DNA of 64,000 bases, from the NCBI GenBank assembly GCA_022844165.1, contig JALHMH010000015.1, positions 26,263 to 90,262 of the forward strand, written 5' to 3'. The notes below the pieces were generated by a model that saw nothing but the letters and a program-made list of their open reading frames with translations, was not told the origin of the DNA and did not search any database. This document shows, one piece after another, positions 9,555 through 42,008 of the stretch; the stretch's first letter is position 1; the number at the start of each line of letters is the position of its first letter. The position numbers and the translations under genes were made by a program. Source of the DNA: Lysobacterales bacterium (lineage in GTDB: Bacteria; Pseudomonadota; Gammaproteobacteria; Xanthomonadales; SZUA-5).

Positions 9555-10089
9555 CTTCCGGCCTCGCGAGGCATACCTCTGAATCATGCCCGTCAACGGG
9601 TCAGGGTTCATCTCGATAGTTGACGAACAACGTAGGAAGAGAGGTTGACACAGAGGGAGGCACCACAACGACGCCGAATACGTGTCCGAGAACCGAACCG
9701 CTGAAATCGCAGGAAGAAGTCGATCGAAACGCTGGAACGACGCAGAAGCACGACCGAGGAAGTAACGCGGGACCCGGATCTCGATCATCGAGACGGGGCG
9801 GTGTTGACCCAAGTCCAAGTAGTAGGATCAAAAACTAGAAGCAGATCAGGTGTTGACAGGAGGCGTCCATACGTGTCCTCGTTATGTTGTTCACCGACTA
9901 GGCGCACCTAGAGATTTTCGATGGATGAACTGCAATGAGTCCCGAATTAAGCGCTTTTTACAAACAGCTTCGGATATACCGTAAAATCAAATTCGCAGCC
10001 GTTATCGCGACGGATCGCCCTGTCGAGAAAAAACATCATGGACCAAAGCGCAGCCTGCCCGCCTTGATTCCGTAACATCTTTGGCGCAT

Positions 10090-10566
10090 TTAGTCTATTA
10101 GCTGCACATCGGCCAAGGAAAGCGCTGAAATAATACGCTCGGCTTTAGTGCGACAATTGGAGTTGCACGTCTTCGAGAGCGAACTCAATGCCCTTATTAT
10201 CCGAAGCTTGACTCCGCGCAGCTGTTCCACTTCCGATTCTGAATCTGTGGTTAAAAGCAACGCTCCCGCGTCGCTTACCCATGCATCAAAGTCACTCTCG
10301 TGCCTTTCGAACCAGACAAGCATCATCTCCGGCCGGCATTCTAGCGCTCGACCAAGGTGATCTGATACCTCAAAGCCAAGCGCACCATCTCTAATCAACC
10401 AAAGACTACCAATCGTATGAATGACTGGAATCGCGTCACTTTCTCTTTCGCCGCAAAGTAGTTTTTCTGCATTGGTGTCCAGCCACAATAAACTCTCCGA
10501 TGCGAAATCGCGCGACCAAGCGGTTGATTGAAGAAAGAAACTAACGGCAATCAAAAGCCTACTCAC
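10090..10566 (-). CDS. Putative periplasmic immunity protein for the upstream toxin-like ORF
   Basis: Its GTG start overlaps the toxin stop (GTGA). It has a signal-peptide-like 'MSRLLIAVSFFLQSTAWS'. The sequence is AT-rich and I recognise no family, so the role is inferred from context. Confidence 0.45.
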   Translation of the reverse strand: MSRLLIAVSFFLQSTAWSRDFASESLLWLDTNAEKLLCGERESDAIPVIHTIGSLWLIRDGALGFEVSDHLGRALECRPEMMLVWFERHESDFDAWVSDAGALLLTTDSESEVEQLRGVKLRIIRALSSLSKTCNSNCRTKAERIISALSLADVQLID

Positions 10567-11336
10567 TCAAACCCTCCATCGAAACGCTCTGATATAATAA
10601 TCCTTGCAGTCATTTGCTGCCGAATGGAATTATATAAGGCTTTGGTTGCTGCACGACTGTTATAAACTCTGTTGGAGCGATATTCGCTTCCAGGCATTAA
10701 GCAACCAAGTGTATGCGCCGGTGTATTCCCAGAATGAATGAGGATTTTCGACCTGCCGGGCACTCGTTGCAATTCAAATGCCGACGGATACGCGCGGCTT
10801 GAGTACGGCATGAGCTCATATGATCCGGGCATTATTCTTAGGTCACTACCTTCGATTGTAGAACTTGGTCCAGCGGGCTCCAAAACAAATGCGCTGTTGA
10901 AGTTTCCGTAAAGATCTTCCCAATATATTTCGCTGATCGTAGCTTCGTTCGTTGTGAGAAATCTAAATAATTTTATCTCAAGTTCGGTTGGCAAGAAATC
11001 TTCGACTGCGTCGGAGCCATACGGATCCGGAGGAGGAGCACCTGGCCCATTCGCCGGTCGATGCCATTCATCATTAAACGCCCTAGAAAACGCCGCCGTG
11101 ACTGCCCCATTGGCGAACTTCCCACCGCTCGCCGCGCTGACCGATCCGCCTACGAGAGCGGCGGCGATGACTCGGCTGGGGCTGAATCTGCGGTTCGCCG
11201 CGTCCAGCGTGTCGATTTTTCCTGAGAACGCTTGTGTCACGCCTGCGGACAGGAAGCCATGGCCAAATTTTCCGCCCTGCAAAGTCTGCATCACGCCACC
11301 CGCAATGCCATGCGCAGCCACTTTGGCCGCGAACAA
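10563..11336 (-). CDS. Orphan polymorphic-toxin-like C-terminal module (Gly-rich pre-toxin segment plus DUF5675/YkuD-like domain)
   Basis: 'GGKFGHGFLSAG...GGKFANGAVTAAFSRAF' resembles the pre-toxin region of CdiA/FhaB/Rhs-type toxins. The C-terminal 'ILIHSGNTPAHTLGCLMPG' resembles the DUF5675/L,D-transpeptidase-like His...Gly-Cys motif (from memory). GC drops near nt 11060. The start is uncertain: TTG at 11336, with the first ATG at 11291. Confidence 0.55.
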   Translation of the reverse strand: MFAAKVAAHGIAGGVMQTLQGGKFGHGFLSAGVTQAFSGKIDTLDAANRRFSPSRVIAAALVGGSVSAASGGKFANGAVTAAFSRAFNDEWHRPANGPGAPPPDPYGSDAVEDFLPTELEIKLFRFLTTNEATISEIYWEDLYGNFNSAFVLEPAGPSSTIEGSDLRIMPGSYELMPYSSRAYPSAFELQRVPGRSKILIHSGNTPAHTLGCLMPGSEYRSNRVYNSRAATKALYNSIRQQMTARIIISERFDGGFE

Positions 11337-11666
11337 GCCGGGACTCAGGTCCGTGCGCTATAGCGCGACCCACAAGAGCGACGTGTCCCGTTGGTCGCGC
11401 CATGCGACGCTGTTGTCTGGAATGCTGCGGTGAAGTCGCCCACTGGATGGGCTGCCTTCCTGCTGTGGGGGGCGCGATAACTTCGACAGTCGATGGTGAA
11501 TCTGGCGGGCTGACCCGCAACGGCTTTGACATAGTTTCTCCGATCAAAGCCGCTCTGAAATGAGAGATAACTCAAAGTATAACTGGCAGGTCGCATTGAT
11601 TTGAAGATGCACGCACCCTGGACCGACCAGGGCGCGCGGTGTCTTTTGGCCTGGATGACCGTTCGA

Positions 11667-14600
11667 TCATTCAAATCCGTTCGCGAACAGTCCATCGTCT
11701 GCGCCCGCCGCGATCACGCACCATTGATTAACGGTGCCGCTGTCGCCGGTGGCATCGTCAATGACGGTCAGACGGAAGTCGCCGGCGGGCAGGCCATTGA
11801 ATCGTGCCAGATCGTCTTGCGGACGCAATTCGCCGTTGATGGCTGGTGCGGTGGTGCGACAGGCGACGATTGCGCTGTCATCGTCGTTGAAGGTGCCGTT
11901 GACATCATCGCCGGTGCAATTGTTTTGTTTGGTGTACAGCCGTGCTTCTACGCCGCTGGCGACGTGCGTGAGACGGAATGCCAACTGTCCAGCGCTGGTG
12001 TGTGCGGTATTAATGCTGACATCCAGATCGCCGATCAGCGAGCCAGGTACGGTCAGTGTCTGCGTGGCACCGCTGGCGTTGCCATCGGGAATCGGCAGGG
12101 CGCTCTGCGAACAAATGGCGGCGGCCGTTGTGAAGCTGCGCATGGTGCTGGCGGCAGACTCGCCGCAGGCGTTGATTGCGGTCACGCGCCAAAAGCGGGT
12201 GACGGCCGGCGCCAGTTGTGGCAAGCGGAACTGCGTCGCGATGGTCTCGAAGCTCTGAGTGTTCGGTCCGGCTGCAAAAGCACTGCTGTCGGATACGTCC
12301 ACGCGATAACGCAACGCGCCCGTCGCGGCCTGCCAGGACAGCTGTGGCGCGCGTTTGACGCCTGTCTGACTATCGCCCGGGCTGCCCAGCAATGGCGCAG
12401 CTGAGGTGCTGCTCGATACCCATAGTGGCAGCGCCAGTTCGTCGTCCGTACCGCCGCTCACGTCAGCGCGAACAGTGGTTGGATACGCACCGGGGACCAG
12501 TCCTGCCTGCGGTGTCAATGTCAGCGTGCTGCTGCCGGTGTTGATCGAGGCGGGCGCAAAGGCCACGCCGAGGCCGCTCGGTGCGCCGTCCAAACTGAGC
12601 GCAGCGTTGCCGGCAAAACCGGCGAAACTGCCGAAACTCAGGTTGGTCTGCGTCGGCGTTGCGCCGCAGACATTGATCGTTGTTGCCGGGGAAGTGATCG
12701 CCACACCCGCCTCGCGACAGTTGGTGCACACCAATGCGTAATCTTGCGCGGGTGTTCCGGGCGTGCCGTTGCCCGCGAGTGCATCGGCGTTGATCGCCGC
12801 GGCCGTCAATGTGATCGTTGTGGCGCCGCCGGCGGGCGCTGCCAGATAGACATTTTCAATGTTGTTCAGCCGATCGAAGCTGCCGCCGGTTACCGACGTG
12901 CCGTTGTTGAAGACGTTGCCAAAGTACGTCTGGCCACCGTTCACCACGGTCAGGTCCAGATCGTTCACGAGGGCCGGATTGGCCTGCACCGCGCCAGGCG
13001 CATCGGTCCACACCAGCGAGATCTTCATGGGTCTGCCGGGATCGACCAACCCGACCGTAAAGCTTCGCGTTTGTCCGGTGGCTGTGAGTACATCGTCCTG
13101 ATCGCGATACACGCCGCGCAAGCTCGGATCGAAGGTGTACTTCAGGTCGACCTGACCCCAGCCCTCGTCGTTATTCGGTATCGGTCGCGAGCCGTCGTTG
13201 GCGTTTGGTGTGCCGGTGCCGGCCAGATCGTAGGCACCATTGATCAGTACCGCTTTGGTCATGGCTGGAGACGGAACGGCACCGGCGAATTTTTTGGCCC
13301 ACCATTCGTGCACCAGAGCTGCCGCGCCGGAGACCATGGGCGTGGACATGCTGGTGCCGGAGCACAGCGAGAACAGGCCGTTGGTGCCGGCGATTGCCGT
13401 TCCGCATTGGCCACCTTCAGCGCGACGTGTTGAACCGGTATTGCCGCCAACGCCAGTGATCGTGGGGAGGGTCCGACCATCTTCTGCGGGTCCTCGCGAC
13501 GACGAGGAACTGATGTTGCTGGAGCTGGCGGGGTTGGTGCGCCCGACTAACGAATTGGCTACGGAGATGATGTTTTTCGCCACGTGGGGGCCGGTGAGGG
13601 TCGATACGCCGGGTCCAGCGTTTCCAGCTGAAAACAAGATCGAAAAAGCTTGGTTACCGGTGGTGTTGAAATCGCCGTCGCGAACCAGAGTGTCGTATTC
13701 ACGCTCGCTGGCAAGGTAACGCACTTGCGGCGAACTGCCCGAGTTGTTCCAGGAATTATTTGATCCGCGCGAACCCGCCGCCAATGGAATGCGCGTGCGC
13801 TCGGGGTTGGGCATGCCACCGCAACCCACCGATCGAACCGCAAAGAGCCCCGCCGCCGGAGCGACGCCTTGACCATATCGGTAACCGTTGGCATCGGTTT
13901 CCGCCGCGGGCCCGGAGAAGTCTCCAGTACCGCGACCCGCCAGCGATCCCGAGACATGCGAGCCATGCCCACCGCTGTCGTCGCCCGGCAACGGGGCCGT
14001 GGGGCAGCCTGGGCCGTCGTGACCGCCCACCCGCGCCACCCCCAAATCCGGATGCTCCCAATCGGTACCAGAATCGACCACCGCCCAGGTGATGCCTGCG
14101 CCGCTCAAGCCCAGATCCCACGGCACGCCGATGGTCTTCAGGAAATCAAGATATCCCGGTGCGTTGCCGATTCCGCTGGGCGAGAAGTTGCGCGCGAAGA
14201 CCTGGTTGGCCATTTCATCGTCGGGCTGCGCCTCCGATTCGCGACCAACCCAAACCAACTCCGGGAGCTGTGAAACAGCCGCTAGAGCGCCGGCGTCGAT
14301 GCGACCTGACGCGCGATAGAAGCGGGCGTCCGGCTGGGCTGGGTAAAACTGTTTGAGTGACACGCCGCGCGCGGCTAGCGTGCCCTGCAGCGTTGTCGGT
14401 GAGCCAGAGTTGAACAACAGAAAGCTTGCGTCTTCAATCGGCCCATTGCTGCTGCGCAAGTTCGGATCGATTCGCAGGTCGCCGCCGAAGGCTGCTGCGC
14501 CGCGAATCATCGGTTGACCGTCCAGCGCAGCGATGGATGCCCCGTCGGCCCAGACGAGATAGGCGTTGTGCGGATAGTACTGAAGCGGCAATACCTCGGC

Positions 14601-16948: not shown

Positions 16949-17038
16949 CAGTTGTCAGGTGCGCAAGCTGACGCAGCGCACTCTTCGCTAGAACAAGCGC
17001 CGGGCAAGCTGTCCGCAGGCGCCAGAGACGGTCGAAAA

Positions 17039-18133
17039 ATGGAAGCAGCTGCAATCACTTCGAGAGATATGAAACTCTGGCGCAAAGCCAATCTGGTCTA
17101 TCTGGTCTTCGCGTTTCTGCCGCTGGCGCTGAGCCCGTCGCTTCGAGATTCGGCCCTGGCGTGGTCGGCGACGCTGATTGCGATTGTGTTGTTTCTGCCG
17201 CTTTACTGGGTGAGCTACACCCAGCCTGCGCCGCGGCAGTTGCTCGTGTGTGGCGGCATTGCGCTGATCGGTCTTGCGCTGACGCCATTCAACTACGGTG
17301 GCAATACCATTTTGATTTACGCCATGGCCGCAGCGGGTTACGGTCAGCCTGCGAAGCGTGCCGTCGCGATCGGTATCGCGATCGTGCTCGCCTACGCAGC
17401 GGTGTTGCAGTTCTCCGGTCAGCAGCTGTTTCCGACACTGATGCTGGTACTGATCGGCGGTTCGGTCCTGATGGGTGCCATCCTGGGCACTGCGCAAGAG
17501 CGCCGCAATGCCGAACTGAAGCTGACCCAAGAGGAGGTCAAACGTCTGGCGAGCATGGCCGAGCGAGAACGCATCGGTCGCGATTTGCACGATCTGTTGG
17601 GACACACGCTGAGTTTGATCGCAATCAAGAGCGAGCTGGCAGGAAAACTGATGTCCCGCGACCATGCCAGTGCAGCCGCGCAAATTGCCGACATTGAGAC
17701 GATCGCACGCAAAGCACTGGGCGAAGTGCGCGAAGCGGTGAGCGGCATTCGCGCCACCGGTTTTGCCGCCGAGCTGGCGGCGGCACGACTGAGTCTGCTG
17801 AGCGCTGGTGTGTCACTGGATACGAAAATCGACCAGATGCCGGCGCTGGCCAGCGAAATCGAATCGGCGCTCGCGATGAGTCTGCGCGAGGCGGTGACCA
17901 ACGTGGTGCGGCACGCGGCCGCAGGTCGTGTCGAAGTTGAAATCGAATCCTCACCGCGTGCGTTGTTGTTGTCGATTAGCGATGATGGTCGTGGGGCAGC
18001 CATTGCACCGGGTAACGGATTGACAGGCATGCGCGAACGGCTGGAGAAACTCGGTGGGCAATTAAGCGTCGATAGCGTCATCGGCGCTGGCACCCGATTG
18101 CGCATCTGGCTGCCGACAGCGGCCACAGCATGA
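17039..18133 (+). CDS. Sensor histidine kinase (HisKA_3 / DesK-NarX type)
   Basis: Multi-TM N-terminus, H-box 'RERIGRDLHDLLGHTLS' and ATPase 'GNGLTGMRERLEKLGG'. The start is uncertain (17039 or 17069). Confidence 0.85.
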   Translation: MEAAAITSRDMKLWRKANLVYLVFAFLPLALSPSLRDSALAWSATLIAIVLFLPLYWVSYTQPAPRQLLVCGGIALIGLALTPFNYGGNTILIYAMAAAGYGQPAKRAVAIGIAIVLAYAAVLQFSGQQLFPTLMLVLIGGSVLMGAILGTAQERRNAELKLTQEEVKRLASMAERERIGRDLHDLLGHTLSLIAIKSELAGKLMSRDHASAAAQIADIETIARKALGEVREAVSGIRATGFAAELAAARLSLLSAGVSLDTKIDQMPALASEIESALAMSLREAVTNVVRHAAAGRVEVEIESSPRALLLSISDDGRGAAIAPGNGLTGMRERLEKLGGQLSVDSVIGAGTRLRIWLPTAATA

Positions 18134-18735
18134 TGCGCATTGTGCTCGCCGAGGATCAGGCGATGGTGCGCGGCGCGCTGGCGGCGTTGTTGACGTTGGA
18201 AGACGACATCGAGGTTGTCGCGCAGGCCGCCGATGGCCTTGAGGCTGAGCGTTTGGTGATGGAGCTCAAACCCGATCTGCTGGTGACCGATATCGAAATG
18301 CCTGGTCAATCCGGGCTTGATCTGGCGCGGCGACTGCGCGAATCCGGCAATACGACCCGTGTGGTGATCGTTACGACATTTGCGCGTGCGGGTTATCTGC
18401 GCCGTGCGCTCGACGCGGGCGTGCGCGGATATTTGCTGAAAGACGCGCCATCGAGCCGGCTGGCCGAGGCTTTGCGCGATGTCCATAAGGGCGGACGCGC
18501 GATCGCGCCGGAACTGGCGCAGGACGCGTGGCGCGAGGACGCCGATCCGCTGACCGATCGTGAGCGCGACGTCCTGCGATTGGCGGGCGAGGGCTTGAGT
18601 TCGTCGGAAATCGGCGAGCGTTTGCATCTGTCCGCGGGAACCGTGCGCAATTATTTGAGCGAAGCGATCAGCAAGTTGAACGCGAGCAATCGCATCGAAG
18701 CGCATCGCCTCGCGCGGCAGCGTGGATGGCTTTAG
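18130..18735 (+). CDS. Response regulator, NarL/LuxR family
   Basis: Receiver domain 'MRIVLAEDQAMVR...LLVTDIEMPG' plus LuxR HTH 'LTDRERDVLRLAGEGLSSSEIGERLHLSAGTVRNYL'. It overlaps the kinase stop by 4 nt. Confidence 0.92.
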   Translation: MMRIVLAEDQAMVRGALAALLTLEDDIEVVAQAADGLEAERLVMELKPDLLVTDIEMPGQSGLDLARRLRESGNTTRVVIVTTFARAGYLRRALDAGVRGYLLKDAPSSRLAEALRDVHKGGRAIAPELAQDAWREDADPLTDRERDVLRLAGEGLSSSEIGERLHLSAGTVRNYLSEAISKLNASNRIEAHRLARQRGWL

Positions 18736-26130: not shown

Positions 26131-26426
26131 CAGTTGCGCCCTCCCACCCAGGTGCCTGCCGCCGCGCGGTAGCCATGGACGTCGATACGTCGCCAGACAT
26201 TGGCACGAGTGTAAGGATCGGCTGCGATCCACGCGCGTGCTGCCGGCAAAGACTCGGCCTCAATCACAAACATCGACCCGATCATCGCGCCAGCATCGTT
26301 CAACCACGGCCCCGCAATCCGAATAATCGCCATCTGCGTCTCAATGAATGCGAGGTGCTCGGCGAGATGTAATGCGCGCAATTGCGCGCCTTCGCTGCTA
26401 TCGATTGCCCAGATCACTGCCAGCAT
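26127..26426 (-). CDS. YciI family protein
   Basis: A 99-aa protein. 'RALHLAEHLAFIE...GPWLND...AADPYTRANVW' is YciI-like. Confidence 0.7.
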   Translation of the reverse strand: MLAVIWAIDSSEGAQLRALHLAEHLAFIETQMAIIRIAGPWLNDAGAMIGSMFVIEAESLPAARAWIAADPYTRANVWRRIDVHGYRAAAGTWVGGRNW

Positions 26427-32685: not shown

Positions 32686-33258
32686 TCAGGTCAGACGTGC
32701 GAGCGGCGCGATACGGCAAAGAACAACTTCGCCGCCGCCGTCCAGCACGGCCCGGCCGCCTGAGCCGTCGCCGCTCAGAAGCAAGGCATGCTGTGCACCA
32801 AGCCACTGGCTGCGTTCGCCTGCGCGCAGCGTCGCTTCGCCGCTGACCAGATACACGAGCCAGCTCACGTCGATTTCATTGAACAGCACCATGGCGCCGA
32901 CGAGTGGCCGCGGCAGCAATTTGGCATCGATGAGGTGTGGGTCGTAGATCAAGTTGAAAACCGAGCACGGGAAATCCCCTTGCGCGTTGCATGGTGTATC
33001 GCTTGGGATCGTCTGCGCGCTCAGGCGCGGCGCGATGTCAATGCGGCGCTCATCGACGTCCAATGTGAGCGGTCCGCCGTCGAGCAATGCGATCAGCCGA
33101 GTCTTGCCAGGGAAAGCGGTGAAATCGCCCGCCGCATCGATGCGTGCGACGCTTGCTCGCCACTGCCAGGGATCGCCACCGCGGGCGATTTCGCGGGTTG
33201 CGCCATGTGACCAGGGGGACACACGCTGCGATTGTGGTTCGATACAGGTCAACTTCAC
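32686..33258 (-). CDS. hutD: HutD/Ves family protein
   Basis: 'RVSPWSHGATREIA...WRASVARIDAAGDFTAFPGKTRLIALLDG' matches the HutD pattern. The GTG start overlaps the upstream stop. Confidence 0.7.
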   Translation of the reverse strand: MKLTCIEPQSQRVSPWSHGATREIARGGDPWQWRASVARIDAAGDFTAFPGKTRLIALLDGGPLTLDVDERRIDIAPRLSAQTIPSDTPCNAQGDFPCSVFNLIYDPHLIDAKLLPRPLVGAMVLFNEIDVSWLVYLVSGEATLRAGERSQWLGAQHALLLSGDGSGGRAVLDGGGEVVLCRIAPLARLT

Positions 33259-33743
33259 TTCTTGGCCCTGGAAATCATTGTCGTTCTAATGCCTTCCGCA
33301 AAGTCCACAAAACACTGATCGAACTGATAGGAGAGAAGCGGCCACTCACGAGAGAAGTGGGGATTCTTAAAGCAGTCTTCCAAATATCCAACCCATCCCT
33401 GCCACTGAACCTTTCGAAAACCAGATCGTGTATCGCGATAAAGCAAGAAAGCTCGTTCGTGCAGACTCAATAGCAGGCAGAAAAGTAGCTGCATTCGTTT
33501 CCGCCGTTCGCCGCTGAGCGGTTCCGTTACGTCGCTGCCATTCCCGAACGCGGGCAAGTCCGGATTTTCCAGACAAGTCCTGAGATAAGCGTCATAACAA
33601 TCACCCAGCGTAGAATACGTGCGACTTTCACGATCTTTAATCTCGCGAAATTTGCCATAGACGAAGACGCCGATGCCAACTGGCACGCCCAGAAGTTGAA
33701 TCCAGAGGATCAACAGTTCGATAAGTTCTTTCGACAAGATCAT
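33255..33743 (-). CDS. Hypothetical N-terminally membrane-anchored protein (AT-rich islet)
   Basis: One TM segment, 'LLILWIQLLGVPVGIGVFVY'. I recognise no family. It lies 2 nt downstream of the SET gene and overlaps the hutD start. Confidence 0.45.
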   Translation of the reverse strand: MILSKELIELLILWIQLLGVPVGIGVFVYGKFREIKDRESRTYSTLGDCYDAYLRTCLENPDLPAFGNGSDVTEPLSGERRKRMQLLFCLLLSLHERAFLLYRDTRSGFRKVQWQGWVGYLEDCFKNPHFSREWPLLSYQFDQCFVDFAEGIRTTMISRAKK

Positions 33744-33745
33744 TC

Positions 33746-34123
33746 CTAGATAAAGTCCAGATGCGAGCAGTCTGCCATGAACTCTCGATAGTCTGAAGTG
33801 AGTTCCGTATTTTCCGGAATGCGTTCCCTGGCGAATCCCAAGCCCTCTCTTGTAAAATCCGTATTGGGCGATCGAGAGTGGTTAATGAACCTGCCCGCTG
33901 TGGATTCGTAATAAATCGGCCCGTCAATGACTGACCGCCAGGCATGTATTTCAAGTTCGTTGCGAACGTCGAATGGTATCGTGTTCCATTCTTCCTCTGT
34001 GAAAATCAGGTCGAAGCGCTCGTCAAAGCGCCATATGAGTTGGCCCTTTTCAATATTCGTTCTGGTAAAGACACCTACGCCGGAAATTGGGCTTGGGGCC
34101 ACGAAGACTGGAATTATAAACAC
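33746..34123 (-). CDS. SET-domain protein (putative protein lysine methyltransferase)
   Basis: 'GVGVFTRTNIEKGQLI', 'GRFINHSRSPN' (NHSxxPN-like) and 'ELTSDY' are SET-domain core motifs. The protein is 125 aa and AT-rich. Confidence 0.75.
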   Translation of the reverse strand: MFIIPVFVAPSPISGVGVFTRTNIEKGQLIWRFDERFDLIFTEEEWNTIPFDVRNELEIHAWRSVIDGPIYYESTAGRFINHSRSPNTDFTREGLGFARERIPENTELTSDYREFMADCSHLDFI

Positions 34124-34384
34124 GACAACCTCTGCGTATTAAAATGACAATGAGTTCCAAGAACTGTGTTTGGGCACCTTGTACCTATCTCCGATCAAAC
34201 GAACGGACGACAGGACAACACGCTGCATCCGGAGCGAATCATGGCCAAGTATGACAGCGGAGCGCGCGGGTTGAAGCCTTCAACGAGCAGTCGCCTGCCG
34301 CTCTTTTGCTCGGCGGCTCGGGTCGGCATACTCCGACAGCTGGCCGGCGAGCTGCCGCAGCGCCGCAGGCATAGGAACCTCCGC

Positions 34385-35215
34385 ATGAGCGATTCAAAGC
34401 CAGTATTCGTAGAAGTTGCGCCGAATGCCTTCGTTTTTCGCGAGGGCGACGTCGGAACCGATATGTACATCATCGAAACCGGTACTGTCGAGGTGCTCCG
34501 CGAAGCGCGCGGCGGCGATCCGATCGCGGTGCTTGGCGCCGGGGACTTTTTCGGCGAGATGGCCATCTTGGAAGACCAGCCGCGGTTCGCGGCTGTGCGC
34601 GCAACCTCTGCGGCGCGACTGTTGAAGGTCGATCGTGCCGCTTTCGCTGGCATGCTGCGCGACAACTTCGAGATTGCCGTGCGCATCATGCGCAAGCTGG
34701 TGGCGCGGTTGCGCCGAACGGAAGAGCAGTTGCAACAAGCGCAAAATGAGCTGGATTTGTTGCGCCGCGGCGGGCCAGACAAGGCTGCGCCAGTGAAGCC
34801 GAGTCGCGATACAGTCAAGTCTGATGTCGCTAAACTATCGCCGACGCCCAGCAAACGCATTACCCCAATCGATCCGAACACGATCGGCAAACCCATCAAA
34901 TTGGTTCATGCTCCAAGCGGCAGCGAGTTTGCGCTCGCGACGGGCAGGCAAGAGATGCTGATTGGTCGACCAGACCCGGTCACCGGATTGTTGCCAGAAA
35001 TCAACCTTGGACCGTTGGACACTCAGCGCAGTCTGTCGCGGCGGCACGCTAAAATCATCAACGAAGCGGGCATATTTTTTCTGCGCGAAGAAGTCGGTAC
35101 GACGAACGGTACTTTCGTCAACAACGAGCGTATTGCGACCGGGCAAGCGCGTCCTTTGGCACCAGGCGATCAGTTGCGCTTCGGTTCCGTCGAATTAGTC
35201 GTACAAGCGATTTGA
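34385..35215 (+). CDS. Cyclic-nucleotide-binding domain plus FHA domain protein
   Basis: N-terminal 'FREGDVGTDMYIIETGTVEV...GAGDFFGEMAIL...RFAAVRA' is the cNMP-binding signature. C-terminal 'LIGRPD...SLSRRHAKI...GTTNGTFVNNERI' is FHA. The ATG at 34385 follows an AGGAA RBS. Confidence 0.82.
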   Translation: MSDSKPVFVEVAPNAFVFREGDVGTDMYIIETGTVEVLREARGGDPIAVLGAGDFFGEMAILEDQPRFAAVRATSAARLLKVDRAAFAGMLRDNFEIAVRIMRKLVARLRRTEEQLQQAQNELDLLRRGGPDKAAPVKPSRDTVKSDVAKLSPTPSKRITPIDPNTIGKPIKLVHAPSGSEFALATGRQEMLIGRPDPVTGLLPEINLGPLDTQRSLSRRHAKIINEAGIFFLREEVGTTNGTFVNNERIATGQARPLAPGDQLRFGSVELVVQAI

Positions 35216-35226
35216 GGAGGATGGAA

Positions 35227-36246
35227 ATGGCGCTGGATCTCGATAAACTCGATCTGTCGGCAGTCGATTCACTAGTGACGCTCAAAGCCGAACAGGATCA
35301 GTTGGGCGAGCGCCTGAAAGCCATGGCGGCACGACGCGAGCAGGTATCGGCCGCTGTGTTTGCCCGCGTGCATGACGACTATCGGCAGCGCTTCGATGAG
35401 CTGGCGCAGCAGGCCACGCCTCTGAAGGTTGCCGCCGGCGTTGTCTATCGGGCATTGAAGGAAGAGCTTGAAAGCCTCGAAGCCGCCGTTGCGACAGCGG
35501 CGACGGATCGCGAAGAAATCGAGTTCCGCCACAGCCTTGGCGAATTCGACGCAGCGGGACTCAAAGAGCGGTTGGCGGTTGTCGAGAAGCGTTTGGGCGC
35601 GCAAGGCACCCGGCGCGAAGCTGCGATGGCTCTCAAAGCCCGCTTTCTGGCGGTCGTCAGCAGCGAAGCAGAACTCGATTGCGACGATGGCGACACGGCT
35701 CGCCTGACCGCGATGGCCGCGCCCGATGGTCATTCGGCGACGGTCATTGCAGTGCCGGTTGCGGCGCCTCAAGGCGACTACTCGGCGACCATTGTTGCGG
35801 CGCCCGTTGTTGCTCCGCCGCCGCCTCCTGCGGCGGTGGCAACGATGCCGAGCGTTACCCTGGCAGCCGGCGCACCCCCGGCGCAGACGCTGGCGTCTTC
35901 GGCGGCTGCTGGCAAGCCCCTTAAAGCACGCAATCCGGATGCAACCGTGGTGTTCCGTCAGGGCCGGCTGGAGCCGCGCAACGGCGATGCTGGTTCAGTT
36001 GTGCAGACCTTGGGTCTAAAGCCAGTTAGCATCGGCGCGGATGGCGCTTGCGATGTACAGTTGGCCGTTGCTGGCGTCAGCAAAAAGCACGTTGAGATCA
36101 GCATGACGCGCGCCGGTTTTCAAGTGCGCGATGTAGCGGGTTCCAAGATTGTGAAAGTCAACGGTGAGACGATCAGCGAGAAGGTACTCGTTGACGGCGA
36201 CACTCTCAGCGTGGGTTCCGCACAGTTCGGCTTCCGCTTGATGTAG
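35227..36246 (+). CDS. Coiled-coil plus Pro/Ala-rich linker plus C-terminal FHA domain protein
   Basis: The RBS GAGGAGG (35214-35220) sits 6 nt upstream of ATG 35227. C-terminal 'VSIGADGACDVQLAVAGVSKKHVEI...VNGETI...GDTLSVGSAQFGFRL' is FHA-like. Confidence 0.7.
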   Translation: MALDLDKLDLSAVDSLVTLKAEQDQLGERLKAMAARREQVSAAVFARVHDDYRQRFDELAQQATPLKVAAGVVYRALKEELESLEAAVATAATDREEIEFRHSLGEFDAAGLKERLAVVEKRLGAQGTRREAAMALKARFLAVVSSEAELDCDDGDTARLTAMAAPDGHSATVIAVPVAAPQGDYSATIVAAPVVAPPPPPAAVATMPSVTLAAGAPPAQTLASSAAAGKPLKARNPDATVVFRQGRLEPRNGDAGSVVQTLGLKPVSIGADGACDVQLAVAGVSKKHVEISMTRAGFQVRDVAGSKIVKVNGETISEKVLVDGDTLSVGSAQFGFRLM

Positions 36247-36281
36247 CGTTGCGGCCTGGAATTCGATCCTCAGAGGACATC

Positions 36282-36824
36282 ATGGCGCTTGAGATAGGCA
36301 ACGAAACGATCAGCGACTTTAGAGTGTTGCGGTTGAAGGGCCGACTCGATACCGAGACCAGTGCTGACTTCGAATTGGCCGCGCATGATCTTACCGAGGC
36401 TGGCGACAAGCGCTTTATCGTGGATCTGTCGGAGATCAGCTACGTCAGTTCCGCCGGATTGCGCGTGCTGTTGGCGCTCGCGAAACAGACGGACGACACC
36501 TCAGGTGGTGTGTTGCGGTTATCTGGAATGAGCAGCACGGTCAGGCAAGTATTTGATCTTTCGGGTTTTTCGAAACTCTTTCACATCGCTCCCGATCTGG
36601 ATGCGGCGCTTCGCGGCGATGTTGCGGCGGCCACACCGTCGTCGCCGTCAGCAAAGGTCTCACGCACCGCAGCCGACTTGCTCGGCGCCAGCGGCGGCGG
36701 TCCATCCAGACCCGCGCCGCGGTCGGCCGACGTAGGCCGCCAGGCAGGTAGTCTGCTAGGGGCGCCTGCTGCTCCAAAGCGCAGCCTGTGGGCGCGAATT
36801 TTGGGTTGGTTCAAGGGCCAGTAG
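36282..36824 (+). CDS. STAS-domain protein (anti-sigma-factor antagonist, SpoIIAA-like) with disordered C-terminal tail
   Basis: 'FRVLRLKGRLDTETSADFE', 'FIVDLSEISYVSSAGLRVLL' (phosphorylatable-Ser context) and 'LSGMSSTVRQVFDLSGF'. Confidence 0.78.
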   Translation: MALEIGNETISDFRVLRLKGRLDTETSADFELAAHDLTEAGDKRFIVDLSEISYVSSAGLRVLLALAKQTDDTSGGVLRLSGMSSTVRQVFDLSGFSKLFHIAPDLDAALRGDVAAATPSSPSAKVSRTAADLLGASGGGPSRPAPRSADVGRQAGSLLGAPAAPKRSLWARILGWFKGQ

Positions 36825-36846
36825 CCCGGATCTTTTTGACTATCGA

Positions 36847-36876
36847 CCAGCAGGCAGTTGAGACGCTGCCTGCTGG
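36847..36876 (+). terminator. Strong hairpin downstream of the STAS gene
   Basis: CCAGCAGGCAG (36847-36857) pairs perfectly with CTGCCTGCTGG (36866-36876) over 11 bp with an 8-nt loop. There is no U-tract. Confidence 0.45.
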
Positions 36877-36981
36877 TGCGAAGCAGGGATGGTTCGCTCA
36901 TGGATCGAGCACGCATGTGGTTGATCCATAGAGAGAGCGAGTACCGACACGCGTTTTTCAACAACTTTTCAGGAGAAGTTT

Positions 36982-37461
36982 ATGGCGATTCAAGTCGGCG
37001 ACCGTTTGCCCTCAGGCACGCTTGCTTATCTCAAAGACGGCGTGCAACACATCAGCACCGATGACTTGTTTGCCGGCAAGATGGTCGTGATGTTCGCCGT
37101 CCCCGGAGCTTTCACGCCCACTTGTTCGGCCCGGCATTTGCCCGGCTATGTCGACAAACTGGAGGAACTCAAAGCCAAGGGCGTCGATTCAATCGTATGC
37201 CTCTCGGTCAACGATGCCTTCGTGATGGATGCGTGGCGCAAGAGTCAGTCTATTCCTGACGATGTGCAAATGTTTGCGGATGGCAATGCTGTTTACGCCA
37301 AGGCGCTGGGCCTGGAGCTCGATGCCAGTAAATTTGGCATGGGTACTCGTAGCCAGCGCTTTGCGCTGGTCGCTAAAGATGGCGTTGTGACGCAAATGTT
37401 CGTTGAGGCGCCGGGCGAGTTCAAGGTGTCGAGCGCCGAGCATGTATTGAGCGCACTCTAA
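36982..37461 (+). CDS. Peroxiredoxin, Prx5/PrxD (glutathione-dependent) subfamily
   Basis: 'MFAVPGAFTPTCS' peroxidatic Cys motif. The length is 159 aa. Confidence 0.9.
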   Translation: MAIQVGDRLPSGTLAYLKDGVQHISTDDLFAGKMVVMFAVPGAFTPTCSARHLPGYVDKLEELKAKGVDSIVCLSVNDAFVMDAWRKSQSIPDDVQMFADGNAVYAKALGLELDASKFGMGTRSQRFALVAKDGVVTQMFVEAPGEFKVSSAEHVLSAL

Positions 37462-40157: not shown

Positions 40158-41321
40158 ATGCTCAAGATCAAGACCTACAATAAAATTTCCACCAGCGGCA
40201 CCTCGCGTTTGCCGGCGCAGCGTTATGAGATCGGCGACAAAGTCGATGCGCCAGACGCAATTCTGGTGCGTTCGGCGGACTTGCATACCATTGCGATCAA
40301 TCCTGAGCTCAAGGCCGTCGCACGCGCCGGGGCAGGCACGAACAACGTGCCGGTGGTCGAGCTCAGCAAACGCGGCATTGTTGTGTTCAATGCACCGGGC
40401 GCCAATGCGAACGCAGTAAAGGAACTGGTTCTCGCAGGCATGCTGATGGCGGTGCGCAATCTGCGCGAAGCCACGGAATTCGTGCGTGGCCTCGATGCCA
40501 ACGATCCAGAACTTGAGCACAAGGTCGAGGACGGCAAGAAGCGCTTCGTCGGCAGCGAGGTCGTGGGCCGCACACTCGGCGTCGTTGGCCTGGGTGCAAT
40601 CGGTGTGCGCGTGGCGAACGCTGCCAAGGGCATCGGCATGAACGTGATCGGCTTCGATCCGCACATGACCGTCGATGGCGCCTGGCAGTTGTCGAGCGAT
40701 GTGGCCAAGGCCGGTAGTTTGAGCGAGATCCTGGCAGCCTCGGATTTCGTTTCGCTGCACTTGCCGCTCAATGCCGGCACCAAAGGCAGCATCAATGCGA
40801 CCACCCTGGGTGGCGCCAAACAAGGGCTTGTGCTGTTGAACTTCGCGCGCGAAGGCGTCGTCGATGAGGACGCCGTGATCGCCGCGTTGGACAGCGGGCA
40901 TCTGTCGCACTACGTGACCGATTTCCCGACGTCGCGCACGGTGGCGCACGGCAAGGTCGTGTCGTTCCCGCACTTGGGCGCATCAACCAACGAGGCTGAG
41001 GAGAACTGCGCGATCATGGTCGCCGATCAGCTGCGCGACTATTTGGAAAACGGCAACGTCAACAATTCGGTGAATTTCCCGAGCATGCGCCTGGCGCGTG
41101 CCGGTGCGCAGCGCCTGACAGTGGCCAACCGCAATGTCCCGAACATGATCGGTCAACTTTCGCACGTTCTCGGCGAGGCCGGCGCCAACATCGCGCAGAT
41201 GCTCAACGCTTCGCGCGGCGAACTGGCCTACAACATCCTCGATCTCGATCAGCCGATCGGTGCGGATGTAGTGGAAAAGGTCAAGGGTATCGATGGGATT
41301 TTGGCGGTGCGGGTGATTTGA
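40158..41321 (+). CDS. serA: D-3-phosphoglycerate dehydrogenase (with C-terminal ACT domain)
   Basis: 'GRTLGVVGLGAIGVRVA' NAD-binding motif, 'LLNFAREGVVDEDA' and 'PHLGASTNEAEEN'. It is adjacent to serC. Confidence 0.85.
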   Translation: MLKIKTYNKISTSGTSRLPAQRYEIGDKVDAPDAILVRSADLHTIAINPELKAVARAGAGTNNVPVVELSKRGIVVFNAPGANANAVKELVLAGMLMAVRNLREATEFVRGLDANDPELEHKVEDGKKRFVGSEVVGRTLGVVGLGAIGVRVANAAKGIGMNVIGFDPHMTVDGAWQLSSDVAKAGSLSEILAASDFVSLHLPLNAGTKGSINATTLGGAKQGLVLLNFAREGVVDEDAVIAALDSGHLSHYVTDFPTSRTVAHGKVVSFPHLGASTNEAEENCAIMVADQLRDYLENGNVNNSVNFPSMRLARAGAQRLTVANRNVPNMIGQLSHVLGEAGANIAQMLNASRGELAYNILDLDQPIGADVVEKVKGIDGILAVRVI

Positions 41322-41421
41322 AGCTGTTTTCGACGCAATACCATCCCGACGTGAGTTTAGATCGCTCTTGAGCAATTCCGGTTTCTGTCTGGTAGTGTGT
41401 AAGAAACGGAGATTCGTACAC

Positions 41422-41616
41422 ATGAGAACCAACATCGACATCGATGATGAACTGATGGAAGAAGCGATGCGTCGAACAGGCGCTTCTACCAAGAAGGCGG
41501 CGGTTGAGATGGGGCTGCGGATGCTCTTGCAGGTCAGTCGACAACTCGATATCCGGAAACTTCGCGGGCAGGTTCAGTGGCAAGGCGATCTTGAGAAAAT
41601 GAGGCTTGATCATTGA
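41422..41616 (+). CDS. vapB: Type II antitoxin VapB family (DUF2191/Arc-MetJ-like)
   Basis: 'MRTNIDIDDELMEEAMRRTGASTKKAAVEMGLR' is typical. It overlaps the vapC start by 4 nt. Confidence 0.78.
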   Translation: MRTNIDIDDELMEEAMRRTGASTKKAAVEMGLRMLLQVSRQLDIRKLRGQVQWQGDLEKMRLDH

Positions 41617-42008
41617 TCTTGGTCGATAGCAGTGTCTGGATCGATTACTTGCGTGGCAACGCCACGGCGCCAGTGGAGAAGCTCGAATCTCTGCTGGGGA
41701 TTGCGCCGCTCGCTGTTGGTGATCTCATTCTTGCGGAGGTCTTGCAGGGATGCGGGAGCGAGAAAGAGTTCGACAGTGTTCGAACGTTGCTGTTTGGACT
41801 GGTTGTTGTGGACTTATGTGGTGCGGAACTTGCTGTCCAAAGCGCTCGGCATTTCCGGACGCTACGGCAGCACGGCATTACAGTCCGCAAGACCATCGAT
41901 TGCATCATCGCCACGCGTTGTGTCGTCGACGACTTGGAGTTGCTTCACGATGATCGCGACTTCGATGCTTACGAAAAGCACTTAGGTTTGCGCTGCGTAG
42001 CATGTTGA
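41613..42008 (+). CDS. vapC: Type II toxin VapC (PIN domain ribonuclease)
   Basis: 'MILVDSSVWIDYLRG' (first acidic residue), later 'IDCIIA' and 'LLHDDRDFD'. Confidence 0.85.
   Translation: MILVDSSVWIDYLRGNATAPVEKLESLLGIAPLAVGDLILAEVLQGCGSEKEFDSVRTLLFGLVVVDLCGAELAVQSARHFRTLRQHGITVRKTIDCIIATRCVVDDLELLHDDRDFDAYEKHLGLRCVAC

Follow-up and report, generated by a model that had tools for sequence, protein, structure and literature searches.

A cNMP-binding/FHA, coiled-coil/FHA and STAS gene trio of Lysobacterales as the candidate core of an elaborated partner-switching module

Introduction

Partner-switching modules are among the main signalling devices of bacteria outside the two-component systems, and their phosphatases usually receive inputs through PAS, receiver, GAF or HAMP domains. 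How is an operon to be understood which encodes domains of such circuits and has no kinase or phosphatase beside it? This question is raised by three genes, called here g1, g2 and g3, in the genome of a Lysobacterales bacterium (GenBank assembly GCA_022844165.1, contig JALHMH010000015.1). The analysed stretch of 64,000 nucleotides (positions 26,263 to 90,262 of the forward strand) is referred to as the window, and all positions are counted from its first letter. The genes encode a cyclic nucleotide (cNMP)-binding protein with an FHA domain, a coiled-coil protein with an FHA domain and a STAS protein, respectively. An earlier note on this DNA, made from the sequence alone, had described them as phospho-reader and partner-switch proteins without a kinase or phosphatase nearby. 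The comparison with related genomes presented below indicates that the trio is most likely a variant of the familiar bacterial partner switch rather than an enzyme-free system. That it forms the core operon of a Lysobacterales-specific, elaborated partner-switching module is proposed with moderate confidence as far as the overall shape of the model is concerned; who phosphorylates whom, the ligand, the source of phosphothreonine (pThr) and the output are parts of the model that we infer.

Results

Enzymes of a partner switch adjoin the trio in related genomes

The three genes follow one another in the same direction:

34385–35215, + strand: g1, 276 amino acids (aa); cyclic nucleotide-binding (CNB) beta-roll (residues 7–82), C-helix (84–127), disordered linker (129–161) and FHA domain (171–275).
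35227–36246, + strand: g2, 339 aa; three long helices (residues 11–143), Pro/Ala-rich disordered linker (about 168–233) and FHA fold (246–338).
36282–36824, + strand: g3, 180 aa; STAS domain (residues 1–112), candidate phospho-Ser57 (codon 36450–36452) and C-terminal tail.

The domains named in the earlier note were confirmed by Pfam, in the case of g3 also by the model TIGR00377. Its statement that no Ser/Thr kinase, phosphatase, anti-sigma kinase or type III or type VI secretion system (T3SS, T6SS) gene lies nearby was equally borne out, as none was found in the 64-kb window. Most of the larger open reading frames (ORFs) of the window, including all near the trio, were analysed with Pfam, and all ORFs of at least 70 aa were searched by phmmer with kinase, PP2C and RsbW queries. 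The sole signalling genes in the window were a NarL-type two-component pair (16952–18735) about 16 kb upstream of the trio, and the only HATPase match was the HisKA_3 histidine kinase encoded at 16952–18133.

Related loci were collected by a genome scan with a g1 profile, using one genome per species for 185,579 species. The scan relied on two exact peptide patterns and was therefore biased to close relatives; genes at the collected loci were called only crudely, and the loci are phylogenetically non-independent. It resulted in 75 loci (designated by L and a number), all but two of which belonged to Lysobacterales or to unclassified gammaproteobacterial/Pseudomonadota genomes. Among the taxa with trio-related loci were Tahibacter, Dokdonella, Rudaea, Ahniella, Chiayiivirga, Pseudomarimonas and many metagenome-assembled genomes. 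The order and orientation g1-g2-g3 recurred in about 60 loci, which together with the short spacers of 11 and 35 nt in the window corroborates the three-gene + strand operon proposed before, and seven loci carried g1 and g3 without g2.

In the usual setting, the atp operon with atpI on the opposite strand is followed by g1, g2 and g3, a gene for an FHA-PP2C protein on the opposite strand, a MAPEG gene and a phasin gene. The FHA-(GAF)-SpoIIE (PP2C) gene was located directly after g3 in 41 of the 68 STAS-bearing loci and encoded a protein of 370–630 aa. The SpoIIE domains of the linked phosphatases scored 143–150 bits, and a GAF match was present in L050 and was clear in the distant clade described below. 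All 41 aligned phosphatases showed the canonical FHA residues GR, SRRHA and SANGT, and conserved the PP2C motifs GGD, DVSGKG, TDGxDE and DDxT, taken as metal-binding motifs; judged by these residues, the linked FHA-PP2C proteins are presumed to be active phosphatases. In L018 and L034, a gene for an RsbW-type kinase (HATPase_c_2) was found just beyond the MAPEG gene, no more than about 2.5 kb away from g3.

The view that the module is intrinsically free of enzymes has thus to be given up, with a PP2C gene downstream of the trio in more than half of the loci and RsbW-type and Hanks kinases clustered with the homologous core elsewhere. The earlier note had allowed that the missing enzymes of a known module could be encoded beyond the genes which it recognised. 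The enzymes were indeed found beside the trio of relatives, but the module is not a characterised one. Because the enzymes are adjacent in relatives, the enzyme-free look of the window trio is probably explained by a local rearrangement: the operon would have moved from the atp locus to its present surroundings, so that the enzymes are encoded elsewhere or have been lost.

Some loci showed variants of this arrangement. In L054 (12675–13493, - strand), from an uncultured gammaproteobacterial genome, an extra gene with cNMP_binding and DUF1003 domains stood between the STAS and FHA-PP2C genes; by its domain content, its product is predicted to be a second cyclic-nucleotide receptor within the module. 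In L014 (6563–9205, - strand), L015, L039 and L040, which represent one Lysobacterales sublineage, the FHA-PP2C protein was short (about 370–390 aa) and had no GAF-like middle part. Moreover, in L014 a gene for a Hanks kinase with TPR repeats was oriented divergently to g1.

A distant clade combines the same core with both kinds of kinase

A search with the g2 profile revealed a second clade of coiled-coil FHA (ccFHA) proteins with 27–30% identity and a length of about 380–395 aa, as well as shorter relatives of about 309 aa labelled Thermoanaerobaculia. A recurring gene cluster was present on five contigs (L080, L081, L082, L086 and L087). Its order was ccFHA, STAS and FHA-GAF-SpoIIE, with the STAS gene called on L080, L081 and L087 and not called on L082 and L086. 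The opposite strand carried genes for HATPase_c_2 and DUF7005 proteins on all five contigs, followed by an FHA-FHA-ABC exporter gene on L080, L082 and L087 and a C39-peptidase ABC exporter gene on L080 and L087. On L080, L081 and L086, a Hanks kinase (Pkinase) gene preceded the cluster by a few kb; the sequences of L082 and L087 end before that position, and on a shorter sixth contig, L084, a Pkinase gene lay about 3.4 kb upstream of the ccFHA gene.

In phmmer comparisons, the PP2C protein of L080 matched its Lysobacterales counterparts at 1e-76, and the ccFHA protein of this contig matched g2 at 1e-39; the ccFHA-STAS-FHA-GAF-PP2C core is therefore common to both clades. The clustering of this core with both kinds of kinase in the distant clade is the strongest evidence for the trio being part of a phosphorylation-driven partner switch.

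Further features were noticed on these contigs. The operon of HATPase_c_2, DUF7005, double-FHA ABC and C39 ABC genes faces the ccFHA-STAS-PP2C operon (L080 13379–21116; L082 5749–11475; L087 4305–12153), and the double-FHA ABC exporter is similar in architecture to Rv1747. The DUF7005 protein, co-operonic with the RsbW-like one, may be its partner. A gene for an FHA-trypsin protease was divergent from the ccFHA gene in L082, L083 and L084.

The STAS protein g3 carries a conserved serine and a long tail

The g3 ORF (191 aa in its longest form) matched Pfam STAS with an E-value of 6.9e-18 over residues 19–120, as well as STAS_2. It scored above the cutoff of the NCBIfam model TIGR00377 for anti-sigma factor antagonists (68.4 versus 53.45 bits), and its best matches in the Protein Data Bank (PDB) were SpoIIAA proteins. 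The Ser context SYVSSAGL pointed out earlier was found at residues 53–60, and in the phmmer alignment Ser57 corresponds to the phospho-Ser58 of Geobacillus stearothermophilus SpoIIAA (1TH8_B). A serine occupied this position in 63 of the 68 family members, including that of the window, and an asparagine in the remaining five (Tahibacter soli, two Pseudomarimonas and two Chiayiivirga loci). The phosphorylation of g3 at Ser57 is predicted from this alignment. No conserved Thr was found in g3.

The serine was kept in all 41 loci with an adjacent PP2C gene, and all five Asn loci were devoid of a PP2C gene between the STAS and MAPEG genes. The association was significant in Fisher's test (p = 0.004), a value uncorrected for phylogeny and stemming from about three lineages.

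The tail of g3 (residues about 113–180) contains two motifs of the AAxLLGA type, AADLLGA (130–136) and AGSLLGA (155–161), which were kept across the 68 loci. It terminates in a basic amphipathic segment, RSLWARILGWFKGQ (residues 167–180), and relatives end, e.g., in GFFARLLGIFRK or WKRLFGK. The basic tail reported earlier is consistent with a net charge of +4 over the last 16 residues. This end resembles the membrane-targeting sequence of MinD, KGFLKRLFGG. The hydrophobic moment was 0.46 for the g3 end and 0.45 for the MinD reference, but it was significant relative to shuffled sequences in only seven of the 68 proteins. Hypothetically, g3 could be targeted to the membrane through the end of its tail.

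The protein g1 is predicted to couple cyclic-nucleotide binding to an intact FHA pocket

In g1, Pfam detected cNMP_binding (2.2e-21, 76 bits, residues 9–94) and FHA (1e-11, residues 209–267). The AlphaFold2 (AF2) model consists of a beta-roll (7–82), a continuous helix of 44 residues (84–127), a disordered linker and the FHA domain (171–275). The phosphate-binding cassette FGEMAILEDQPRFAAVRA comprises residues 56–73 (nt 34550–34603), with the Gly-Glu pair and the Arg invariant in 20 homologues.

FHA domains need four residues to bind pThr, namely Arg in G-R, Ser and His in S-x-x-H, and Asn in N-G. The corresponding residues of g1, GR (194–195), SRRH (218–221) and TNGT (240–243), were invariant or nearly so in the 20 homologues, and judged by these residues g1 is predicted to be the only member of the trio with an intact pThr pocket.

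The closest homologues of g1 were two-domain proteins from Lysobacterales, Xanthomonadales and Rhodanobacteraceae genomes, labelled 'CRP-like cAMP-binding protein' in JGI. Over the CNB domain the best NCBIfam match was CRP, with 45 bits versus a cutoff of 266 bits. No helix-turn-helix (HTH) was detected in g1 by Pfam or in the AF2 model, the C-terminal domain being FHA; according to the model, g1 has a CRP-like build in which FHA replaces the DNA-binding domain. The g1 profile run against 1.84 billion representative proteins gave 652 clusters at E ≤ 1e-30. Among the best 150 clusters, 114 contained proteins of 238–367 aa, mostly matched across both domains, and the remainder were long multi-CNB proteins or fragments. 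With matches so numerous, the cNMP-FHA architecture is a common one, and it appears to be widespread in metagenomes.

The FHA fold of g2 has lost its phospho-binding residues

The C-terminus of g2 matched Pfam FHA (4.8e-08, 33.7 bits) and Yop-YscD_cpl (5.3e-08), and the mean pLDDT of its AF2 model was 83, with values above 90 over the FHA part (residues 246–338). Among the 50 matches listed by Foldseek against the PDB there were FHA domains only (GarA, OdhI and FhaA, with target-normalised TM-scores of 0.8–0.9). In spite of this fold, the role of a phospho-reader given to g2 before could not be maintained, since the pocket residues of GR, SxxH and NG were lost in the Lysobacterales-type sequences: the window protein has G-A, S-K-K-H and K at these columns, and the pocket Arg and Asn were absent in 25 of 25 sequences (alignment A2). 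In the same alignment, six homologues from the distant clade kept the full pocket (G-R, S-R-x-H and S-x-N-G). The Pfam FHA score of 33.7 bits for the window protein versus 66 bits for the ccFHA protein of L080 agrees with the pocket loss. Lysobacterales g2 proteins have thus retained the FHA fold, and the pocket disappeared in the very lineage in which g1 is present as an additional canonical FHA protein.

The N-terminal part of g2 is built of helices 11–35, 42–103 and 109–143 (AF2 pLDDT about 97) and contains the conserved motifs RVRxDY, PLK and LDxQExExRHxLGEFD. No Pfam family matched these N-terminal ~150 residues, and at E ≤ 10 just noise was obtained (ZapB and CdvA-like coiled coils). The linker of the window protein contains the motifs SATVIAVP and SATIVAAP, and short (S/D)AT(V/I)(I/V) or T(Q/M)(V/I)(M/L)P motifs were present in the linkers of both clades. 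There were 2.0 such T-hydrophobic motifs per linker versus 0.6 in shuffled sequences, a count partly confounded, as one motif is the first FHA beta-strand, 18 sequences could not be parsed and the linker of the window protein was misparsed. The linker threonines are suggestive only, as candidate phospho-acceptor sites.

In L065 (Tahibacter sp. UC22_41, 10001–12169), g1 and g2 were read as one 722-aa ORF. A natural fusion of the two genes was rejected, as the frameshift removes the last strand of the g1 FHA domain and the related L060 has a normal stop; the fused ORF is probably a sequencing error or a pseudogene.

The trio recurs in different surroundings with a conserved upstream motif

In most Lysobacterales loci the operon is divergent from atpI and the atp operon. 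In the window and in its closest relative, L012 (89% identity of g1), the trio lies between the HutD and peroxiredoxin genes, and in L085 between genes of 2-oxoglutarate (2OG) oxygenases and RNase PH, so it was intact in three unrelated contexts. Two elements outside the coding sequences accompany it in the window:

34306–34332, + strand: promoter-like motif, TTGCTC (34306–34311) and CATACT (34327–34332) separated by a 15-nt spacer, about 55 nt upstream of the g1 ATG.
36847–36876, + strand: stem-loop after the operon, with perfect 11-bp arms (36847–36857 and 36866–36876) and an 8-nt loop.

The sequence TTGC(C/T)G-N15-18-(TCGG)CATA(A/C)T was found 5' of g1 in most of the inspected related loci. 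As it recurs whatever the upstream gene is, the three genes travel together, accompanied by what is probably a promoter of their own. The generic sigma-70 scan gave no call at 34306–34332, and the putative promoter role of the motif is suggested by its conservation only. The spacer of TTGC(C/T)G-N15-18-TCGGCATA(A/C)T was 15 nt in the window and L012 versus about 18 nt in most relatives, which might weaken the promoter-like motif or change its regulation.

The gene starts used here were set by homologue alignment. Translation of g1 was assigned to the ATG at 34385, M1 being invariant in the 20 homologues. The start of g2 is the ATG at 35227, preceded by GAGGAGG seven bases before, and that of g3 is the ATG at 36282, downstream of AGAGGA. 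Strong Shine-Dalgarno sequences had been ascribed to the operon, but that of g1 (AGGAA) is only a moderate one. The longest ORF of g1 has 349 aa (GTG at 34166) and the database protein P0001 has 324 aa, both beginning 5' of the conserved promoter motif; since the family alignment puts the g1 start at the ATG at 34385, the public annotation of P0001 is probably too long, by 48 residues.

The perfect 11-bp hairpin noted earlier at the end of the operon was found as described. It is a part of a larger fold (36827–36896) with a free energy of -39.7 kcal/mol (z = -5.84) in RNA folding, equalled in stability by 0 of 200 shuffled sequences. The terminator scan did not call it because a U-tract is absent, and its identity as a canonical intrinsic terminator was rejected. 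No Rfam family matched in the region 33900–37100, the hairpin included.

Neighbouring genes in the window

The neighbours of the trio in the window are housekeeping genes: hslVU, ribBA, HutD, peroxiredoxin, quinone oxidoreductase, serC, pheA, hisC, aroA, cmk, rpsA and lapB. Next to the operon lies a SET-domain gene (33746–34123, - strand; Pfam SET 4.8e-12), beside a gene of 162 aa (33255–33743, - strand) assigned to no family, whose product gave one weak PADLOC match (Drt1b/RTasTM, E 5e-4). The GC content at third codon positions (GC3) of this islet (33255–34123) was 0.55–0.56 versus about 0.70 in the neighbouring genes, and it looks like a small recent acquisition. The earlier note had described the trio as divergent from this islet, with a shared upstream region of 260 bp (34124–34384). 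The islet is unrelated to the trio, as the SET gene is absent from L012, in which an unrelated gene stands between HutD and g1, and was unmatched in every other related locus; a functional tie between the trio and the islet was rejected on these grounds, and the SET gene, belonging to a low-GC3 islet, was placed outside the module.

A PIN-domain gene (41613–42008; Pfam PIN 5e-10) and a small ORF of lower GC3 on the opposite strand (together 41281–42008) were located between a serA-like dehydrogenase gene and pheA. The region may represent a toxin-antitoxin pair inserted into a row of biosynthetic genes that is conserved apart from it.

Discussion

A model of the module

FHA domains recognise pThr but not phosphoserine (pSer), the form in which STAS proteins are phosphorylated. 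Two separate phospho-circuits are therefore assumed, one with the FHA domains and the other with the STAS switch. In the proposed model, Ser57 of g3 would be phosphorylated by an RsbW-type (HATPase_c_2) kinase, and phospho-g3 would be dephosphorylated by the dedicated FHA-(GAF)-SpoIIE PP2C, with both the kinase and the phosphatase unlinked in this genome. The binding of a cyclic nucleotide to g1 would gate the docking of its FHA domain on a pThr partner, which may be a substrate of a Hanks kinase or the kinase itself, with the g2 linker and its threonines as one candidate. A Hanks kinase would produce the pThr sites, perhaps on this linker, at which both g1 and the phosphatase dock by their FHA domains. 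The g2 protein would act as a coiled-coil scaffold, with an FHA fold that contacts other proteins independently of phosphorylation. By jointly controlling how active the phosphatase/kinase pair is or where it is located, g1 and g2 would determine whether g3 is phosphorylated. Without its phosphate, g3 would bind a target, either the RsbW-like protein or a different one, and might do so at the membrane via its basic C-terminus and the two AAxLLGA motifs. The earlier description of the trio as a cyclic-nucleotide-gated, phospho-dependent scaffold is therefore reasonable for g1, but not for g2, which is not a phospho-reader.

Several observations weigh against this model. In the window itself, genes for Pkinase, PP2C/SpoIIE and RsbW-type proteins and candidate sigma factors were found neither within the 34 kb upstream nor within the 27 kb downstream of the trio. 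An adjacent PP2C gene was missing in 21 of the 68 loci despite a sufficient flank, those of cultured Tahibacter species included. Of two complete genomes, that of Tahibacter amnicola (CP104694) has the trio only, and that of Dokdonella sp. MW10 (NZ_CP197094) has the trio and the PP2C gene. The PP2C adjacency is largely one inherited synteny at the atp locus, which could explain a part of the linkage, and the 41 PP2C loci are therefore not independent events. Within Lysobacterales, the RsbW-type kinase gene was adjacent in just two loci. No sigma factor was linked at any of the related loci, and no target of any kind was identified. Cyclic-nucleotide binding by g1 is a prediction, and in the 20 homologues an invariant Phe follows the cassette Arg, an unusual content for a position at which characterised cNMP receptors have Ala, Ser or Thr (F-G-E...R-(A/S/T)-A). 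The pThr partner of the FHA domains named above is a candidate.

Alternative explanations

A bolder version of the partner-switch model is less probable. According to it, the trio and the FHA-GAF-PP2C protein would form an undescribed hub with three inputs: cNMP, sensed by g1, which would act through a phosphopeptide-binding domain instead of DNA binding or catalysis; Hanks-type pThr, recognised on the g2 scaffold by the FHA domains of g1 and the phosphatase; and the pSer of the STAS protein. Its output would be non-transcriptional, exerted by membrane-anchored g3 on a transporter or another membrane machine, and cNMP-FHA proteins would constitute a broad class of second-messenger-gated phospho-adaptors.

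Somewhat less probable, and rather unlikely on the whole, is the explanation that the trio works in this lineage as a scaffold free of enzymes, with g3 acting by ligand- or tail-dependent binding in the manner of MlaB or SulP STAS proteins and with g1 and g2 as cNMP-gated adaptors. It agrees with the intact state of the trio in the 21 loci without an adjacent PP2C gene and in three genomic contexts, with the retention of the operon in the five loci in which Asn replaces the phospho-Ser and with the phospho-pocket of g2 being already lost; the tail motifs and amphipathic C-terminus of g3 offer surfaces independent of phosphorylation. However, Ser57 is present in the window protein and in nearly all of the family, and the invariant canonical pThr pocket of g1 implies some phosphorylated partner. 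The clustering of the homologous core with PP2C, RsbW-type and Hanks kinase genes in other lineages also speaks against an enzyme-free scaffold. As for MlaB, the model NF033618 gave g3 26.7 bits versus a cutoff of 90 bits, and no mla genes were found near the trio.

The third possibility, which we consider improbable, is that tail-anchored g3, instead of sequestering an RsbW-type protein, binds a transporter or the F1Fo ATP synthase encoded next to it and so regulates this machine, the phospho-circuit only tuning the binding. The divergent orientation of the operon to atpI and the atp operon in most Lysobacterales loci would fit such a regulator, as would the exporter genes (FHA-FHA-ABC and C39-ABC) clustered in the distant clade and the likeness of the g3 end to the MinD sequence with its nearly equal hydrophobic moment. 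An output other than a sigma factor has a precedent (bioRxiv 10.64898/2026.04.08.717354). Against this stands the lack of an ABC exporter consistently near the Lysobacterales loci, and the amphipathicity of g3 was not significant relative to shuffles. Furthermore, the operon left the atp locus undisrupted in the window, L012 and L085, and therefore atp adjacency is not required.

A secretion accessory, with the trio as T3SS SctD/YscD-like or T6SS TagH/Fha-like components under a threonine phosphorylation pathway, is very improbable: g2 matched Yop-YscD_cpl marginally (33.5 versus a 33.2-bit cutoff) and g1 matched TIGR03354 (TagH) weakly (39.7 bits), but both matches span the generic FHA fold only, the TagH cutoff of 120.25 bits is far above, TIGR02500 was unmatched by g1–g3 and no T3SS or T6SS gene was present in the window or in the approximately 85 loci examined. 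Least probable of all is a Pycsar-like anti-phage effector with the g1 CNB domain sensing infection-made cCMP or cUMP, as the partial PADLOC matches to Pycsar effector models and PycC (E 1e-9 to 1e-12) extend over this domain only, genes for a cyclase or for a TIR or transmembrane effector are lacking nearby and the operon, inherited vertically throughout the order, stands among housekeeping genes without defence-island features. Both readings, resting on domain-only matches with no linked system genes, were rejected.

Relation to known systems

The preferred reading of the trio as a partner-switch core may be set against systems already described. It shares with the SpoIIAA-SpoIIAB-SpoIIE and RsbV-RsbW-RsbU/RsbP switches of Bacillus a single-domain STAS protein with the phospho-Ser position, a SpoIIE-family PP2C linked in relatives and, in some of them, an RsbW-type kinase. 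Unlike them, the module has no linked sigma factor and includes, in addition, two proteins of the FHA type, of which one also binds cNMP according to its domains; its STAS protein carries a tail of 70 residues with conserved motifs, and in this genome the enzymes are unlinked. The phosphatase sensors of partner switches surveyed in the literature are PAS, receiver (RR), GAF and HAMP, with FHA not listed and occurring 0 times in the text (PMC12143880), and the FHA(+GAF) sensor of the module differs from these types.

Cross-talk between a Hanks kinase and a STAS protein is reported for PknD of Mycobacterium tuberculosis, which phosphorylates the anti-anti-sigma homologue Rv0516c (PMC1847690). 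Similarly, Hanks kinase genes are found beside the homologous core in the distant clade as well as in L014; in contrast to Rv0516c, where the site is a Thr on the STAS protein, the conserved site here is a Ser and FHA proteins are interposed. The kinases that act with the PP2C and STAS proteins of the Anabaena HenR-All4160 system are reported to be encoded at other sites of the genome, and its output is polysaccharide synthesis, not a sigma factor (bioRxiv 10.64898/2026.04.08.717354). It provides a precedent for unlinked kinases and a non-sigma output of the module, although the organism and the output are unrelated and its abstract mentions neither an FHA nor a cNMP component.

As regards single components, g1 shares with the CRP/FNR receptors the cNMP-binding beta-roll and the long C-helix, but has FHA instead of an HTH. 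The closest solved folds to the FHA part of g2 are the actinobacterial GarA, OdhI and FhaA, small FHA adaptors in Hanks-kinase signalling; in contrast to g2, in which the pocket is lost and a coiled-coil domain of 150 residues is present, the pThr pocket of GarA and OdhI is intact and their N-terminus carries a phospho-switch. Bdellovibrio Bd1971 (cNMP-binding and EAL), which was among the PDB sequence matches of g1, and DgcB (FHA and GGDEF), among the fold matches of g2, likewise couple CNB or FHA to a signalling output in one protein, but neither joins CNB to FHA nor is linked to STAS or PP2C.

Full-text searches revealed no literature on the module, and in the literature searched no experimental study of the cNMP-FHA architecture was found. 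The eLife paper on conflict systems mentions the domains of the module in unrelated contexts only, and databases name the proteins of the trio generically only.

Significance

If the proposed model is true, three signalling currencies, cNMP, pThr and pSer, would be joined in one module, the input of which would be formed by FHA domains and a CRP-like receptor. The locus also illustrates that 'orphan' signalling operons may be explicable through their relatives, as the enzymes apparently absent here adjoin the operon in sister lineages. The comparison yields concrete partner candidates in cultured Dokdonella and Tahibacter strains.

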